This document shows, in pieces, positions 37,822-44,159 of a DNA stretch of 64,000 nt. Origin of the DNA: Terriglobia bacterium. GTDB lineage: Bacteria; Acidobacteriota; Terriglobia; JAJPHL01; JAPKYU01. The number at the start of each line of letters is the position of its first letter. The first letter of the stretch is position 1. The notes beneath the pieces were generated by a model, which worked only from the letters and a program-made list of their open reading frames with translations, had not been told where the DNA came from and did not search any database. The position numbers and the translations under genes are program-made. The stretch is from assembly GCA_965223005.1 (NCBI GenBank), contig CBDCVK010000003.1:72465-136464 (forward strand), given 5' to 3'.

Positions 37822-38354
37822 GCCTCGCGCTCCAGCTCTTCGTCAATCGAGGCAGTGTAGCGTTGGAGAGGACCGCTGGGGAGGGTATCGCTGGCGCGGG
37901 TACCGCTGCTGGGCGCGGCGGTTGAGGCCGGTGGGCCGGCACGTTCGGCCGCCGGCTGCGGCCGCCAGCGCTTCACGACCCGGAAAATCACTGCCAGGCC
38001 CAACAACAGCGCGGCCACAGGCATGATCCAGGCCACCAGGCCGATGCCCCGGGCAGGCGGCGTCGCCAGGACGCCGGCGCCCATCTGCTGGACGAACTCC
38101 TCGACGATCCCTTCTTCGCTCTTCCCCGCGGCGATCGAGGCGCGGACCTGATCCCGCATGGGGTAGGCGGTGCCACAGGGATGCATATTGCATCCCTGCA
38201 GGTGCTGCCCGCACCCGCACTGGCACAGCAGCCGGTCCGAGAGGCGGTTGAACGCCTCTTCCGAAGGGCTGGCGCGGCGCGGACTGAGGGCACCCGCGAT
38301 GACCAAGCCTACTGCGACCAGGCTCACCGCGGCGATCTTATGCCAGGACTTCAT
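37818..38354 (-). CDS. ccmH: CcmH/NrfF-like protein
   Basis: LLCQCGCGQ.LQGC...C, GKSEEGIVEEFV..G..VLATPP and AWIMP motifs. Confidence 0.85.
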   Translation of the reverse strand: MKSWHKIAAVSLVAVGLVIAGALSPRRASPSEEAFNRLSDRLLCQCGCGQHLQGCNMHPCGTAYPMRDQVRASIAAGKSEEGIVEEFVQQMGAGVLATPPARGIGLVAWIMPVAALLLGLAVIFRVVKRWRPQPAAERAGPPASTAAPSSGTRASDTLPSGPLQRYTASIDEELEREA

Positions 38355-40416
38355 CCTTTTGTTTGGTCCTTTGAGACGCGATCTTGAGGGCCACGCGCGC
38401 CGGCGGCGGCGGACGATTGGGAACCAAGGCAATGCCGGTTCCCAGCGCCATCACCAACCCTCCCAGCCAGATCCAATTCACCAGCGGGTTCAGGAACACC
38501 TGGAGGAAGGCACCGCCGTCGGTGCCGGCCTCGGCCAGCACCACGTACAGGTCCTCGCTCATGCGGGAGCGGATGGCCACTTCACTGGTCGGCTGTTGGC
38601 TGGTCTTAAACATGCGCTTTTCCGGCATCATCGTGTCGATGGGCTGGCCGTTCTTTTTGGCGTGGACGTAGGCGCGCTGGAAAGCGTAGTTATCGGTCTC
38701 ACCCATCTCCACGCTGTGCAGCGTGAGGGTGAAATTTCGAACTAGCAGCGGCTCGCCGGGCTTCAACTGGCCCTGCTTCTCGACGTTAAAGGCAGCGCCC
38801 GTGAAGCCAATGAAGACGAACACGATTCCCAGGTGGACGATGTAGCCGCCGTAGCGGCGCGTGTTCCGCAGGGTGAGCTGCGCGGCCGCCCGGGGCAGCG
38901 AAACGGCTGTCTTGCGCCGGATAGCCCACGCGCCCCGGTAGAATTCCGAGATCACCGTGGCGGCCACAAAGCCACACAGGGTGAACGAGACCAGCGGGTA
39001 GAAACCGCGGGCGCCGAGCCAAAAGGTCAAAGCCCCGAACGCCACACCAAACAACGCCGGTGGAAACAGGCTCTTCTCCAGGCTCTTGAGGGAACTGCGC
39101 CGCCAGGCGATCAGCGGTCCCACGCCGGTCAGGAACAGGAGAAACAGTCCTATGGGGATGTTCACCGTGTTGAAAAACGGTGGGCCCACGGTGATCTTGG
39201 TACCCTGAATGGCCTCGGTGATCACTGGGAACAGCGTGCCCCACAGCACGGCAAAGCAGGCGGCGAGCAAAATCAGGTTATTGAACAGGAAGCTGGACTC
39301 GCGAGAGACCACCGATTCCAGATGATTCTCGCTCGTCAAGTAGTCATGCGGCAGGAAATGTGGCCATGGGCGTGGCCATGGGCGGAGTCGTAGGCCCCGC
39401 CGGATTAGGATCAGCACGATCGAGAAGAGGATGCCTACCCCCAGGAAGCCAACAAAGTAGTCGCCGATGGGCGACAGGGCAAAAGTGTGGACCGAGCTGA
39501 CAATGCCGCTGCGCGTCAAGAAGGTTCCGAAGATGCACAGGAAGAAAGTGGTGAACACCAGCACCATGTTCCACACCTTCATCATGCCCTTCTTCTCCTG
39601 CATCATCACCGAATGCAGGAAGGCGGTGCCAGTCAGCCAGGGCAGCAGCGAGGCGTTCTCCACCGGGTCCCACCCCCAGTACCCGCCCCAGCCCAGCACG
39701 GCGTAGGCCCAGCGGGCGCCCAGCAGGACGCCAACCGTCTGGAACAGCCAGGCGATCATGGTCCAGTTGCGGGTGGCCCGGATCCAACCCTCGCCGGGAG
39801 CGCGGGTGATCAGGGCGGCCATGGCGAAGGCGAAGGGCACCGAGAAGCCGATGTAGCCCAGGTAAAGCATCGGCGGGTGGATGGCCATCATCCAGTACTG
39901 CAGCAGTGGGTTCATCCCGTTGCCGTCGGGGGGAACGAACCGAGCGAAGCCCTCGGAAGTCTCGAACCCCAACAGGGTGAACGGGTGGACGACAAACAGG
40001 TTCAGCACCAGGAAAAAGCCTTGTACCACCATCAAGGTGGCAATGACGTAGGGTTGCAGCTCGGGCAGATGCCGCCGGTTCAGCCGGACTGCAATCACGC
40101 TGTAGCAGGCCAGCAGCCAGCTCCAGAACAGCAGCGAGCCTTCCTGGCCCGACCATAGCGCGCTGAGCTTGTAGATGGCCGGCATGGTGATGTTGCTGTG
40201 TGCGGCCACGTTCGCGACGTGGAAACTGTCCTGCTGAAACAACACCACCAGCGCGCCGATGGCCACCGTCAAGGACACCCACAGGGCGGTGACGGAGCGC
40301 CCCGCGCTGGCCACCAGCGTCGGCCGATGGGACCAGTGCCCGGCCAGCGCCGCCACCAGGGCGTACAGGCACAACCCGAACGCCAGAACTAGGGCGAATG
40401 CCCCTATGTGCTCCAT
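38338..40416 (-). CDS. ccmF: Cytochrome c heme lyase CcmF
   Basis: WSGQEGSLLFW, IHPPMLY, WGGYWGWDPVENASLLPWL and SVHTF motifs. Confidence 0.96.
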   Translation of the reverse strand: MEHIGAFALVLAFGLCLYALVAALAGHWSHRPTLVASAGRSVTALWVSLTVAIGALVVLFQQDSFHVANVAAHSNITMPAIYKLSALWSGQEGSLLFWSWLLACYSVIAVRLNRRHLPELQPYVIATLMVVQGFFLVLNLFVVHPFTLLGFETSEGFARFVPPDGNGMNPLLQYWMMAIHPPMLYLGYIGFSVPFAFAMAALITRAPGEGWIRATRNWTMIAWLFQTVGVLLGARWAYAVLGWGGYWGWDPVENASLLPWLTGTAFLHSVMMQEKKGMMKVWNMVLVFTTFFLCIFGTFLTRSGIVSSVHTFALSPIGDYFVGFLGVGILFSIVLILIRRGLRLRPWPRPWPHFLPHDYLTSENHLESVVSRESSFLFNNLILLAACFAVLWGTLFPVITEAIQGTKITVGPPFFNTVNIPIGLFLLFLTGVGPLIAWRRSSLKSLEKSLFPPALFGVAFGALTFWLGARGFYPLVSFTLCGFVAATVISEFYRGAWAIRRKTAVSLPRAAAQLTLRNTRRYGGYIVHLGIVFVFIGFTGAAFNVEKQGQLKPGEPLLVRNFTLTLHSVEMGETDNYAFQRAYVHAKKNGQPIDTMMPEKRMFKTSQQPTSEVAIRSRMSEDLYVVLAEAGTDGGAFLQVFLNPLVNWIWLGGLVMALGTGIALVPNRPPPPARVALKIASQRTKQKDEVLA

Positions 40417-40419
40417 GGA

Positions 40420-40914
40420 TTAGTACGTCCTCGAACCTTGCTGGGCTGGGGCCTCCGGCACAACGCCGGTCTCACCCGGTTCTTGCGCCTCATGCGTTGC
40501 ACTCGGCTTCTGGGCTTCATACTTGGAGGCGCACTTGGCCTGAATCCGCTTGGCTACGAAAACCCCGTCGGGCCCGTAGGAGCCGTCGGCCAGCGCCTGC
40601 GCGCGGTCGCGGAAGGTGTCCGGCAGTGGCTCGGTCCCTACATACAGTACTGGAAGCGTTTCGCTCTCTTGCTCCAGGGTGAACGAGACGCGGTCGTGGT
40701 CCCGGTGAATGGAACCGACCGTGACATCGCCGCCTACCCGCAGCCGCTTGCCGTAGGCCTCATCGCCCATGGCCTGCAGCTCCGGGACGGTGACATAGTA
40801 GGTCTTGCTTTCCTGGATGCCGCTGACTACCAGCCAGGTAATCGTGGCCAGAATCAACAGGATTCCTGCGCCAATTTTCCAACGCTCTTTGCGCATTCGA
40901 CCCGACACAGGCAC
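40420..40914 (-). CDS. ccmE: Heme chaperone CcmE, CxxxY variant
   Basis: RLRVGG, LPDTF and AKCASKY motifs. Confidence 0.92.
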   Translation of the reverse strand: MPVSGRMRKERWKIGAGILLILATITWLVVSGIQESKTYYVTVPELQAMGDEAYGKRLRVGGDVTVGSIHRDHDRVSFTLEQESETLPVLYVGTEPLPDTFRDRAQALADGSYGPDGVFVAKRIQAKCASKYEAQKPSATHEAQEPGETGVVPEAPAQQGSRTY

Positions 40915-41181
40915 ACCCTCCTTCTGCGGGACCGTCGCGGACCCCGATGTCTATTATATCGCCGTTTGCAAGCGGTTCCCGCCCCAAACGGTGGCATACC
41001 GTCCCATCCCAGCAGGCCGCTGAAAATCCTTTTCCGTACGTTTCCGGTGGGTCGCATGGCCAGAAACGGCCGCGCTCCCCCAGCGACCGACGCCCAACGA
41101 CCCATCCCCCACGACCGGCGGGCGGGCGGCACGTGCCGCGCTGTAGTTCCCTGCGGGTTGTTGAGGCGTCGCAGAAAAGGC

Positions 41182-41221
41182 TTGACAGAGGGGTCCAATA
41201 TATTCAAAGATATGAATATAT
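41182..41221 (+). promoter_or_regulatory. arsR promoter with ArsR/SmtB-type palindromic operator
   Basis: TTGACA at 41182-41187; inverted repeat ATATATTCA-aagata-TGAATATAT at 41198-41221, overlapping the start codon. Confidence 0.8.
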
Positions 41222-41672
41222 GAATGTGAATTTGGCCCATCCTCAGGAACTCTTCGCCGCACTCGGCGATCCGCTCCGCCTGCGCCTGGCCTGTTGCCTG
41301 ACCGCGGTGGAAGGGGGGCTGTGCGTCTGCGAGCTGGTGGACGCGCTCCAGGTTTCGCAACCCAACGTCAGTCGCCACCTGAAGCTGATGAAAGCCGCCG
41401 ACTTGGTCGAAGAGCGACGCGAGGGGCGCTGGGTGTACGTGCGACTGAAGGATGCCAAGCATCCCCTCTTTGAGCAGATCCGTTGTTGCCTGGAGACGGT
41501 GTGCTGCTGCTATGACGTCCAGACCGATCTGAAGCGGCTGGCGGCGCGGCTGAAGCTGCGTCAGAGTGGCAAATGCGTGGTGGGAGTTCAACCTAGAAAA
41601 CGGCGTGCGAACACGCCGGGAAAGGAGGCCGACCATGTGCCAGTGTCCATGCTCCGTACCGTGTCCGTGTGA
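41220..41672 (+). CDS. ArsR/SmtB family metalloregulator, Cys-rich (10 Cys)
   Basis: FAALGDPLRL, LCVCEL (alpha3 site), SQPNVSRHLKLM and REGRWVY motifs, plus extra CC and CCC. Confidence 0.93.
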   Translation: MNVNLAHPQELFAALGDPLRLRLACCLTAVEGGLCVCELVDALQVSQPNVSRHLKLMKAADLVEERREGRWVYVRLKDAKHPLFEQIRCCLETVCCCYDVQTDLKRLAARLKLRQSGKCVVGVQPRKRRANTPGKEADHVPVSMLRTVSV

Positions 41673-41685
41673 CGATTGCTGCTAG
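41635..41685 (+). CDS. Putative 16-aa Cys-rich metallothionein-like micropeptide MCQCPCSVPCPCDDCC
   Basis: AAGGAGG 6 nt upstream of ATG at 41635; 7 of 16 residues are Cys; TAG at 41683-41685; overlaps the arsR 3' end in another frame. Confidence 0.65.
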   Translation: MCQCPCSVPCPCDDCC

Positions 41686-41864
41686 CGAGTCGTGATCTCG
41701 TTCGGGCAAAACCGGCGCTGTCAGTGGAGCGGCCGATCCACTACAGCCCGGTACAACAAGTTTGCGAGTAGAGGCCAGCATTGCGCACCCGCCCTCCGAG
41801 GGCAGGACCGCCCAAGGCTGCAGCTTCTGCCACGCGCCCAAGGCCAGGAAAGGAGCGCACAAGG

Positions 41865-42338
41865 ATGTGGAAAGGCACAGTCGTTTCTCTGCACATCACC
41901 CCTGGGGCCAGTGCGCCTATGAGATCGGTTCCCCAGGCGCGTGCCGTGCCCGGTCGTGGGCTGGAGGGCGATCGCTATTTTCACCAAGTGGGGACCTACT
42001 CCGACAAGCCTCGTCCAGATAGCGAGGTGACGCTAATCGAGATCGAAGCCATGGAGGCTTTGAAACACGAATCAGGAGTGGAGCTGGATGCGGGCCAGGC
42101 CCGCCGCAACATCGTCACCCGCCACGTCCCTCTGAATCACCTGGCGGGCCAGGAGTTTCAGGTCGGCGAAGTAACGCTGCGCGGCATTCGGCTGTGCGAA
42201 CCCTGTTCCCATGTAGAAAAGCTCACCCGGCCCGGGGTCCTGCGGGGCCTGATCCACCGGGGCGGCTTGCGGGCGCAGATTCTCACCCAGGGTGAAATTC
42301 GGGTCGGCGACGCTGTGCAGGAGCGGTCCGCCGTGTAG
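41865..42338 (+). CDS. MOSC domain protein (YiiM-like)
   Basis: GLEGDRY, RRNIVT, CEPC and RGGLRA motifs; AAGGAG SD. Confidence 0.88.
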   Translation: MWKGTVVSLHITPGASAPMRSVPQARAVPGRGLEGDRYFHQVGTYSDKPRPDSEVTLIEIEAMEALKHESGVELDAGQARRNIVTRHVPLNHLAGQEFQVGEVTLRGIRLCEPCSHVEKLTRPGVLRGLIHRGGLRAQILTQGEIRVGDAVQERSAV

Positions 42339-42371
42339 AGCGGCTCCGGCCGCTCGGACCGGTTTTGCACA

Positions 42372-42401
42372 TTGACAATCGCACCATCCACCGCATAGAT
42401 T
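42372..42401 (+). promoter_or_regulatory. Sigma70-like promoter of frdA
   Basis: TTGACA-N18-TAGATT, ending 18 nt before the frdA ATG. Confidence 0.6.
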
Positions 42402-42419: not shown

Positions 42420-44159
42420 ATGGAAAGTTCATCTCACGACGTTCTGATTGTTGGGGGTGGAGGCGCGGGCCTGCGCGCGGCCATTGCCGTGGCGGAAGTC
42501 AATCCCCGACTCAGCATCGCGGTCGTCTCCAAGGTTTACCCCATGCGGAGCCACACCGTCTCCGCCGAGGGGGGCGCCGCAGCCGTCGTCAAGCCCAACG
42601 ACAGCCTGGACGAGCACGCCTACGACACCATCTCCGGGGGCGACTGGCTGTGCGACCAGGATGCCGTGGAGGCCTTCATCAAGGAAGCTCCCGAAGAGCT
42701 GCTTCGGATGGAGCACTGGGGCTGTCCCTGGAGCCGGGACCCGGACGGGCATATTGCCGTGCGGGCGTTTGGCGGAATGAAAAAGATGCGCACCTGGTTT
42801 GCCGCCGACAAGACCGGCTTCCACATGTTGCACACTCTGTTTCAGACCTGCCTGAAATACAGCACCCTGATCCGCTACGACGAGTGGTTTGCCACCAAGC
42901 TGCTGGTCGACGACGGCCGAGTGCAGGGGGTGGTCGCACTGGAGCTGATGACGGGACAGGTGCAGGCCATCACCGCCAAGGCCGTGATCCTGTGCACGGG
43001 AGGTTGTGGCCGGGTCTATCCGTTCACCACCAATGGCAGCATTAAGAACGGCGACGGCATGGCGCTAGCCTACCGGGCAGGCGCTCCGCTGAAGGACATG
43101 GAATTCGTTCAGTACCATCCGACCGGCTTGCCCTTCACGGGCATCCTGATTACCGAAGCCTCCCGCGCCGAGGGCGGCTACATGCTGAACAAGGATGGTT
43201 ATCGCTACCTGCAGGACTACAACCTGGGAACGCCGCAGCCCAAGCCGGTGCTGCGCTCCATGGAACTGGGACCCCGCGACCGGCTGTCGCAGGCCTTCGT
43301 CAAAGAGCACCAGAAAGGCCGCACCATTGACACTCCCTACGGCCCGGTGGTCCACCTGGACCTGCGGCATCTTGGGGAAAAGCTCATCAACGCCAAGCTG
43401 CCGTTTGTGCGCGAGCTGTGCCAGAAATATCAGAACATTGACCCGGTCCGGGAGCTGATCCCGGTGCGCCCCGTGGTGCACTACATGATGGGCGGGGTGC
43501 ACACCGACATGAACGGCGCGACGCCGCTGGCGGGACTGTATGCCGCTGGCGAGGTCGCCTGTGTCAGCATCAACGGGGCCAACCGCCTGGGTTCCAATTC
43601 CCTGCCGGAACTGCTGGTCTTCGGGGCACGAGCAGGACAGGCGGCGGCTGTGTTCGCCTCCGAGCAGAGCGGGCCCGGCGCGCACGTTCTGGCACAGGCG
43701 GCTGAGGAGCAGCGCCGACTGGAAGAGCAGTTTCTGCGCAAGACGGGAGGCCGGGAGCGCATCGCCACCATCCGGGAGGAGATGCAACAGACCACGGAGA
43801 GCAGCGCTGGCATCTATCGGACGGGGACGGAGCTGAGCGCGGCAGCGCAAACTCTGCGGACGTTGCAGGAGCGGTTTCTGGATATCCGCCTCGACGACCG
43901 CAGTCGCACGTTCAACACCGAACTGACGACTGCGCTCGAGCTTGGCTTCATGCTGGACGTCGCCGAAGCGATCGTCGAGAGCGCCCTGGACCGGAAGGAA
44001 TCCCGCGGAGCGCATCAGCGAACCGACTTCCCGGCCCGGGATAACGAGAAGTACCTGGTGCACTCGCTGGTGTTTCGCAATGCGGACGGTTCAGCGCGCG
44101 TGGAGCATCTGCCGGTCACCATCACCCGCTGGGCGCCCGGCGAGCGCGTCTACGGATAG
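42420..44159 (+). CDS. frdA: Fumarate reductase/succinate dehydrogenase flavoprotein
   Basis: [31 protein letters not shown] and [10 protein letters not shown] motifs; E. coli FrdA-like. Confidence 0.93.

Follow-up and report, generated by a model that had tools for sequence, protein, structure and literature searches.

Directly behind a gene for a cysteine-rich repressor of the ArsR/SmtB family (arsR), a 64,000-nucleotide stretch of the genome of a Terriglobia bacterium (hereafter the window; G000:C3:72465-136464, G000 being a 3.24-Mb genome in 10 contigs that is 96% complete) contains an unannotated open reading frame (ORF) of only 16 codons, seven of which encode cysteine. Comparative sequence analysis indicates that this micro-ORF is a genuine, conserved and protein-coding gene which is tied to one ArsR subfamily and is unannotated. 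We give a probability of roughly 55% to the reading that it is translated and that its thiolate-rich peptide is the sole conserved cargo of an autoregulated sense-and-sequester operon. The conserved unit is about 0.6 kb long and consists of a promoter with a putative operator dyad, arsR, a covarying hairpin, a Shine-Dalgarno sequence (SD) with the micro-ORF, and a palindromic hairpin at the 3' end. In the window its parts, and the gene that follows it, are:

41182..41187, plus strand: TTGACA, a -35-like hexamer, putatively of the arsR promoter
41201..41218, plus strand: dyad TATTCA-N6-TGAATA, the putative ArsR operator, abutting the arsR ATG
41220..41672, plus strand: arsR, Cys-rich ArsR/SmtB-family repressor of 150 aa (Pfam HTH_5, NCBIfam NF033788)
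41601..41618, plus strand: hairpin CGGCGTG-CGAA-CACGCCG with a 7-bp stem, directly 5' of the SD of the micro-ORF
41622..41628, plus strand: SD of the micro-ORF, AAGGAGG, 6 nt before the ATG
41635..41685, plus strand: micro-ORF (ATG 41635, TAG 41683-41685), MCQCPCSVPCPCDDCC, 16 aa, 7 Cys
41712..41751, plus strand: 3' inverted repeat or hairpin, with a near-palindromic core GTGGAGCGGCCGATCCAC at 41724-41741 and an outer stem CCGG..CCGG
41865..42338, plus strand: MOSC-domain gene (Pfam MOSC, E 1.4e-11), a genus-specific neighbour

An earlier description made by a model from the letters of the window (the sequence-only reading) had proposed the ORF as a micro-metallothionein and had described its SD and the preceding hairpin; on re-reading the window, the coordinates and sequence of all three were exact. 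It had also seen that the ORF overlaps the tail of arsR in another frame, and the overlap amounts to 38 nt at the end of the arsR frame (41220-41672). How readily such an ORF arises by chance was gauged by a six-frame count over the entire genome of 3,238,154 bases: 41 ORFs of 8-30 aa contain 4 or more Cys and are 25% Cys or more; a single one of these is preceded by GGAGG at 4-14 nt, and this is the micro-ORF at 41635-41685.

Linkage to one ArsR subfamily and selection on the coding sequence

The micro-ORF is strictly linked to one ArsR subfamily. ArsR was searched at E <= 1e-25 in 41 relatives and in two sets of 401 genomes each, one from the class and one from the phylum, which gave matches in nine genomes including G000. 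At 54% identity or more to the ArsR of the window, 7/7 genomes have an ATG-initiated, Cys/Pro-rich ORF led by an SD downstream of arsR on the same strand. The peptides are:

G000 and G001: identical
G003: MCPCSGPCPCDDCC
G006: MCPCCPGDCCD
G024: MGPCCPGPCCPDDDGGCG
G311: MKGCCPWPCCPPAA
G203: MKPCCPWPCCPGDA

The micro-ORF is absent from G117 and G666 (0/2), where the identity of ArsR is 46-48%. The same boundary was found in a genome collection with one genome per species and 32 ArsR loci: all 14 loci with an ArsR of at least 56% identity carry such an ORF (four of them lie in genomes already among the seven, so that the two sets overlap), and none of the 18 more distant loci has it directly behind the ArsR gene. 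The 14 loci belong mostly to Terriglobia and other Acidobacteriota, with one from Gemmatimonadales and one from Candidatus Xenobia. A metagenome scan, from which 80 loci were kept, found the ORF in 40 of the 48 loci with at least 56% identity (38 by script, and L070 and L115 by eye) and in none of the 32 with 50% identity or less. L070 has an SD that reads GAAGG and L115 an internal deletion in arsR, and both keep the micro-ORF. Three of the eight loci lacking a scored ORF (L079, L110 and L114) end at a contig edge, and the proportion among loci not cut in this way is 40/45. All sets together, the micro-ORF follows 0/52 of the more distant ArsR loci. The sequence-only reading had suggested looking behind orthologous arsR genes for small SD-led Cys-rich ORFs with conserved Cys and synonymous variation; they are there, and they have both properties. 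Plasmids gave no tblastn match to ArsR at E <= 1e-15 in the plasmid collection searched.

Five uncut metagenome loci lack a typical ORF (L103, L106, L107, L109 and L111). In L106, L107 and L109 a diverged ArsR (56% identity) is followed after about 30 nt by MACCPTEGPHCADAGWKLS, which has three Cys and one His and no SD, and which may be related to the micro-ORF and either decaying or put to another use. In L103 (L103:724-870) ArsR ends ..RLRAGSGCC*; this looks like a decayed copy in which a deletion has fused codon ~109 of arsR, with the frame kept, to the final codons of the micro-ORF. L111 has arsR and the 3' element and no peptide ORF.

The linkage was also examined in the reverse direction with a DNA pattern for CCPxxPCCP in the 401 genomes of the class. 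The pattern occurs in 24/401 genomes, the reversed control pattern giving 4 matches, and only three copies have an SD and an ATG, all of them linked to ArsR. The other copies lie in long frames devoid of start codons and look like the antisense of Gly/Gln-rich repeats. Runs of ...CCPPPCCPPPCCPPP... in one frame with no start codons were seen in several genomes of the class (L157, L158, L163-L165 and others); most likely they represent the strand opposite to genes for Gly/Gln-rich repeat proteins, and they can mislead motif-based searches for such peptides.

In total 57 module loci were compiled, which encode 33 different peptides; these are 11-18 aa long, and 4-7 of their residues (24-50%) are Cys. 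An SD, a start codon and a stop codon are kept in 57/57 loci, the start being ATG in 56/57. Every locus (57/57) has a GGAGG or GAAGG core ahead of the start; the distance from the end of the core to the start is 5 or 6 nt in 50/57 and 4-12 nt in the remaining 7, and among 42 distinct sequences the columns of the AGGAGG core are invariant. Between these fixed points the DNA varies as expected for a reading frame. The commonest 16-aa type is represented by 16 distinct DNA versions, whose nucleotide diversity at codon positions 1/2/3 is 0.021/0.015/0.156, with 2, 2 and 8 variable sites of 16, respectively, compared with 0.235 in the 30-nt flank upstream and 0.344 in that downstream, and pairwise codon differences number 297 synonymous vs 87 non-synonymous. 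Indels are in frame, the ORF of G003 having two codons fewer than that of G000 and that of L047 one more than that of L038. The CCP motif is encoded by differing codons among lineages, and Cys codons in 17 loci are 58 TGC and 34 TGT. The third-position variation and the in-frame indels thus argue that the micro-ORF is protein-coding and, since Pro, Gly and Asp positions are kept alongside Cys while synonymous sites drift, selection acts on the peptide product.

To judge from the sequences, this pattern is not what selection on an RNA or DNA element would leave. It is therefore extremely improbable that the micro-ORF is not made as a protein and owes its conservation to an RNA or DNA element or to chance. 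The region is indeed flanked by two conserved RNA or DNA structures (see below), which would suit such an explanation; the distribution of variation over codon positions, the confinement of indels to whole codons, the signals kept in every locus and the genome-wide control with one hit in 41 all speak against it.

The repressor and the structures around the micro-ORF

The product of arsR matches Pfam HTH_5 PF01022 (E 1.1e-11, 44.9 bits, cut-off 22) and NCBIfam NF033788 (91.1 bits, cut-off 55). Solved relatives, namely 8qkf (ArsR-family), SmtB, 6j0e (Corynebacterium ArsR) and BigR, match only its winged-helix core, with E 3.4e-14 for the ArsR profile against the SmtB structure 1r1t. The core is followed by a C-terminal extension of about 40 aa carrying a CC..CCC cluster, for which the PDB offered only spurious matches (designed repeat proteins and a viral glycoprotein) and no solved homolog. 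Across 38 orthologs four Cys never vary (C25, C26, C95 and C97), and three more (C90, C96 and C119) are kept in 90% or more. The CVC that marks the classical R773-type As(III) site in the DNA-binding region, C35 and C37 in the ArsR of G000, is present in most members. By these sequence features the ArsR is a new Cys-rich subfamily.

In most loci the arsR stop codon sits in the loop of the hairpin that precedes the SD. In the genus of the window this ancestral stop (elsewhere ..GFRR*) is lost, and the arsR frame therefore continues as a tail of some 24 residues, past the SD and into the first part of the micro-ORF (41590-41672). This accounts for the end of arsR that had struck the sequence-only reading as atypical: the tail is a real, genus-specific read-through extension, and it is modelled as disordered by AlphaFold2, in which residues 124-150 have a pLDDT below 50 (core confident; mean 77.8). 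A programmed frameshift or an ArsR-peptide fusion was rejected as a general reading, because the peptide has its own SD and ATG and because arsR stops in the hairpin loop outside this genus.

Upstream of arsR, the dyad is found in 29/54 loci with enough upstream DNA when scored by script with at most 2 substitutions, and TTGACA or a near variant lies at a constant distance before it in most of 23 distinct upstream regions. The exact dyad core is unique in G000, where one unrelated match occurs at 1 mismatch. The dyad is probably the ArsR operator. In most module loci arsR has no SD, and because the ATG abuts the dyad and an SD is lacking, the arsR mRNA may be leaderless.

The hairpin on the 5' side of the micro-ORF ends just before GGAAAGGAGG. 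Its folding energy in G000 is by itself unremarkable (z -1.45, 18/200 shuffles folding equally well), and it is accepted as real because of covariation across loci, not energy. The stems vary by locus (CGGCGTG/CACGCCG, CGGCGC/GCGCCG, GCGCGGA/TCCGCGC, CAGCAGT/ACTGCTG and others), while pairing is retained: in 42 distinct sequences 76.1% of cells are paired vs 64.3% in shuffles, and 29 cells are changed on both sides vs 10.8 in shuffles, neither value being reached by any of 500 shuffles.

The 3' element is stable in G000 (-26.3 kcal/mol, z -3.45) and better conserved than the adjacent intergenic DNA across three phyla (for example L041:3458-3531 and L080:1981-2054). Its general core is GTGGAGCGGCCGATCC(A/T)C within a longer inverted repeat, and the 14-mer core was found with at most 3 mismatches in 46/57 loci, 19-110 nt and mostly 32-34 nt after the stop. 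Among 31 distinct sequences 86.3% of cells are paired, 7/13 pairs are changed on both sides, and the covariation score is reached by 0/500 shuffles. Variants retain a palindromic central hexamer (CGGCCG, CGTACG or TGGCCA), as could be expected, too, of a DNA site bound by a dimeric protein. The scan for intrinsic terminators in 41100-41900 found none on the plus strand, the element being devoid of a U tract; among the printed sequences a T run follows it only in L104. No Rfam family reached its gathering score in 41100-41900, which includes both hairpins (two unrelated matches had E 0.37 and 1.9). A REP-like repeat was rejected as an explanation, the palindrome being single-copy in G000. The 3' element is thus probably an RNA hairpin that forms or stabilises the 3' end, or else a DNA site. 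In L070 it is inverted. Elsewhere in the class its 16-mer occurs only in coding DNA and outside any palindrome. G222 contains four copies of the 16-mer GGAGCGGCCGATCCAC (L178/L190 and L188/L189 being similar pairs) in open frames or low-complexity DNA; again no palindrome accompanies them, and they have no relation to the module.

Transcription and genomic neighbourhood

Four metatranscriptome runs from one study, labelled sponge metagenome (X1-X4), contain 26-40% of the sampled words of the stretch 40900-42400 (1501 bases). Assembled RNA contigs with at least 99% identity cover only 41238-41887, besides 38 bases at the very edge:

X1: 41244-41887
X2: 41248-41731
X3: 41250-41499 and 41502-41730
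X4: 41238-41464 and 41439-41661

Three of these contigs form a bridge between arsR and the micro-ORF. One contig of X2 and one of X3 stop within the 3' palindrome, at 41731 and 41730, and that of X1 runs from arsR through to 41887, past the start of the MOSC gene. These contigs attest to presence and bridging, not to level, ends or translation; their starts at 41238-41250 do not settle the 5' end of arsR, and stretches lacking them (the ccmE side and the body of the MOSC gene) are not thereby silent.

The MOSC gene had been taken by the sequence-only reading as a possible third member of an arsR-peptide-MOSC detoxification unit. This part of the proposal did not hold up: by tblastn, MOSC follows the module in 3/57 loci only (L002, L003 and L004), all from the genus of the window, and many of the next genes are convergent. 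A role of the micro-ORF as leader peptide of MOSC was rejected on the same grounds. As MOSC is rare behind the module, the peptide appears as the only conserved cargo of the unit. The next downstream gene is convergent in at least 9 of the 13 genome loci inspected, and these neighbours include an M48 peptidase, a CDF transporter, peptide deformylase, YdjM and an amidohydrolase; the upstream genes vary among the 13 loci as well. The module is autonomous and the micro-ORF is its last gene. A gene on the same strand follows in the genus of the window and in L039, L072 and L077. Read from their translations, the neighbours in the window are housekeeping genes: CcmF-like (692 aa) and CcmE-like (164 aa) proteins are encoded at 38338-40914 on the minus strand, and a 579-aa succinate dehydrogenase/fumarate reductase flavoprotein-like protein at 42420-44159 on the plus strand. 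The possibility that the peptide is a ribosomally made precursor modified by a maturase (RiPP) was rejected, as no maturase-like gene was found among 20 neighbours scanned.

The arrangement of the neighbours also bears on a role of the micro-ORF in attenuation, by which ribosomes stalling at its Cys codons upon limited cysteine supply would remodel the downstream hairpin and control 3' genes or the fate of the mRNA, the peptide itself being irrelevant. We regard this as very unlikely. In mycobacteria polycysteine small ORFs (sORFs) are leaderless and first in the transcript, and stalling on them controls cysteine-metabolism genes (Canestrari et al., bioRxiv 10.1101/834739). They resemble the micro-ORF in being unannotated, very short, Cys-rich and located within an operon; moreover, the conserved hairpin begins about 12-30 nt past the stop, a same-strand gene follows in some loci, and the X1 contig reads on to 41887. 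The micro-ORF differs from these sORFs in being SD-led, in lying 3' of a repressor gene and often last, and in the conservation of its non-Cys residues together with synonymous drift, which points to selection on the product. A convergent next gene leaves nothing to attenuate, and the downstream genes, where present, are not cysteine-metabolism genes.

Genes connected with arsenic or metals are found near some of the modules. With tblastn an ArsM-, ArsC- or MIP-like neighbour or a second ArsR was detected within flanks of 1.5-3 kb in 13/57 loci, in at least three different arrangements. In L039 and L077 a gene downstream encodes an ArsM-like methyltransferase, whose match to NF008823 (E 1.4e-76, 257.6 bits) falls slightly short of the cut-off of 263, and MerR lies upstream; an N-terminal ArsM fragment with 61% identity is found at the end of L072. 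L041 and its relatives have a divergent cluster ArsR2-ArsC-MIP, in which ArsC is of the low-molecular-weight (LMW) phosphatase type, and in L040 ArsC lies upstream, with CDF and RND genes on the downstream side. L081 is the weakest of the 13, its match being to a generic methyltransferase region at 35% identity.

Proposed function of the peptide and its possible ligands

The composition of the peptides is, as judged from sequence, metallothionein-like. After the initiator Met it is 37% C, 24% P, 14% G and 11% D, with no His; CC, CxC and CPC motifs occur throughout the family, and the low mass and the density of Cys agree with the operational definition of a metallothionein. The commonest variants contain CCPGPCC, CCPGDCC or CCPWPCC, i.e., two Cys pairs around a Pro-containing turn. 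The engineered tetracysteine tag Cys-Cys-Pro-Gly-Cys-Cys, which binds biarsenical dyes, is built in the same way, as two Cys pairs round a Pro turn; the tag is synthetic and has a spacer of two residues, whereas the natural peptides have three. SmtA is a protein of about 56 aa with Cys and His ligands and a defined fold, and compared with SmtA and MymT the micro-ORF peptide is three to five times shorter and devoid of His. Small fungal Cu-metallothioneins of about 25 aa with 7 Cys are eukaryotic and longer, and phytochelatins are made enzymatically and not by ribosomes; we take the micro-ORF peptides to be similar to these in thiol count and density and in their CxC and CC motifs, with a size like that of phytochelatins.

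The genetic arrangement recalls the SmtB-SmtA operon of Synechococcus, in that an ArsR/SmtB repressor adjoins, and presumably controls, a small Cys-rich product. The micro-ORF lies downstream of the repressor gene and is co-transcribed with it, in contrast to smtA, which is divergent from smtB (PMC7387436). The introduction of the same paper counts only two bacterial metallothioneins as functionally studied as of 2020. Four peptide motif strings had no occurrence in the 8.4 million papers and preprints searched, subscription literature and supplements being outside that scope; within it the tetracysteine tag motif together with arsenite gave no paper either, and the search for a description of such an ORF returned reviews only. 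The family sits in intergenic space because genome annotation does not call genes so short.

Taken together, the module would represent a metallothionein-like cargo under the control of ArsR, together with an ArsR subfamily that is new and rich in Cys, and with two conserved structures in the RNA or DNA. In the operon as we infer it, from the translation of the micro-ORF and its binding of ligand to the nature of the inducer, the role of the dyad as operator and the leaderless start of the arsR mRNA, a thiol-rich ArsR repressor would occupy the TATTCA-N6-TGAATA dyad that abuts its own start codon. A thiophilic inducer, most likely As(III)/Sb(III) and otherwise a soft metal (Cd, Cu(I), Hg, Zn), would bind the sensor Cys and release the repressor. 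From the resulting bicistronic mRNA, shaped by the pre-SD hairpin and the conserved hairpin after the ORF, arsR would be translated weakly for lack of an SD and the micro-ORF strongly, from a near-perfect SD AAAGGAGG at a spacing of 5-6 nt. The peptide of 11-18 aa, with ~37% Cys and 4-7 thiolates, would then bind the inducer, the free inducer would fall, and ArsR would re-bind. As(III)/Sb(III) is the leading candidate ligand, with soft metals being possible; it is favoured because of the ars neighbours, the CVC in most members and the likeness of the CCPGPCC-type peptides to the tetracysteine tag. It is tempting to speculate further that tetracysteine-type peptides of 11-18 residues are natural counterparts of the biarsenical-binding tag and the smallest gene-encoded metal(loid) chelators known, made in excess and acting in As(III)/Sb(III) feedback in a module spread in Acidobacteriota, Gemmatimonadota and Eremiobacterota; this we put forward tentatively, as less likely than not.

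Several observations weigh against a translated peptide that sequesters metal(loid)s. The RNA evidence consists of assembled contigs from one study, and such libraries can contain DNA and their depth cannot rank genes. Many of the contigs that carry the module come from close relatives, and the counts of loci consequently overstate the number of independent observations. No metallothionein family was matched by the peptide frame in Pfam or NCBIfam: when the frame was extended to 39 aa around the peptide, the sole Pfam match was DUF7732 (E 0.19), and no NCBIfam family matched. Aromatic residues are absent from 27/33 variants, and the single Trp or Tyr in the other 6/33 is unusual for metallothioneins. 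A free peptide of 11-18 aa may be short-lived. As to arsenic, 44/57 loci have no metal(loid) gene in the short flanks. G000, at 96% completeness, gave no match to ACR3 (TIGR00832) or ArsB (PF02040), profiles that as controls matched in 7 and 5 of 14 reference genomes, respectively; the organism may thus have no canonical arsenite pump. Finally, the CVC is replaced (AVA, TVS or AVC) in several orthologs that carry the peptide, for example L045 and L048, and as it is lost while the peptide is kept, the conserved sensor is probably not the classical As(III) site.

In a profile alignment with BigR (3pqj; E 4.5e-12, query 1-96) both persulfide-sensing Cys of BigR align with conserved Cys of ArsR, C25 (invariant) and C95/96, a further point that weighs against metal(loid) sensing. 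The geometry of the ArsR site resembles that of persulfide sensors, with extra thiols, and would on sequence grounds fit a reactive-sulfur signal as well as a metal. It is therefore conceivable, if unlikely, that the module serves in reactive-sulfur or thiol stress, a dithiol ArsR of the BigR/SqrR kind sensing persulfides, polysulfides or oxidants and the peptide acting as sacrificial thiol or sulfane-sulfur carrier. The dispensable CVC, and a MOSC gene next to the module in a genome where no arsenite pump was found, would agree with this. The NCBIfam BigR model also matches ArsR, with 51.7 bits, which is well below its equivalog cut-off of 155. ArsR further differs from BigR/SqrR in its C-terminal extension and in having five or more conserved Cys rather than just a sensor pair. 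No sulfide:quinone oxidoreductase, persulfide dioxygenase or rhodanese, or other sulfide-oxidation gene, was found among the 20 neighbours scanned; the informative neighbours are arsenic or metal genes, and MOSC is limited to one genus.

The Cys-rich extension could also be the place where the peptide acts. As a regulatory partner of ArsR, i.e., a metallochaperone, co-sensor or anti-repressor, it would give ligand to, or strip it from, the C-terminal extension and would not serve as a bulk sink. Strict co-inheritance with one ArsR subfamily across three phyla, an extension of ~40 aa for which no solved homolog was found, and an operator that is unique in G000, so that the regulon would be the module itself, are in line with such a partnership. 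Regulator-cargo pairs co-inherit too, however, and the very strong SD behind an arsR devoid of one suggests that the peptide is in large excess over ArsR. We consider a regulatory partner quite unlikely, and sequestration by the peptide as cargo of the operon remains the preferred reading.

If this reading is true, gene-encoded metal(loid) buffering reaches down to the size of phytochelatins. The module would then be a natural and compact cassette of regulator plus cargo in ~0.6 kb, and its peptide a very small, easily synthesised ligand for arsenic and soft-metal chemistry and for biosensors. It would also constitute a clear case of a functional bacterial micro-gene backed by comparative evidence.

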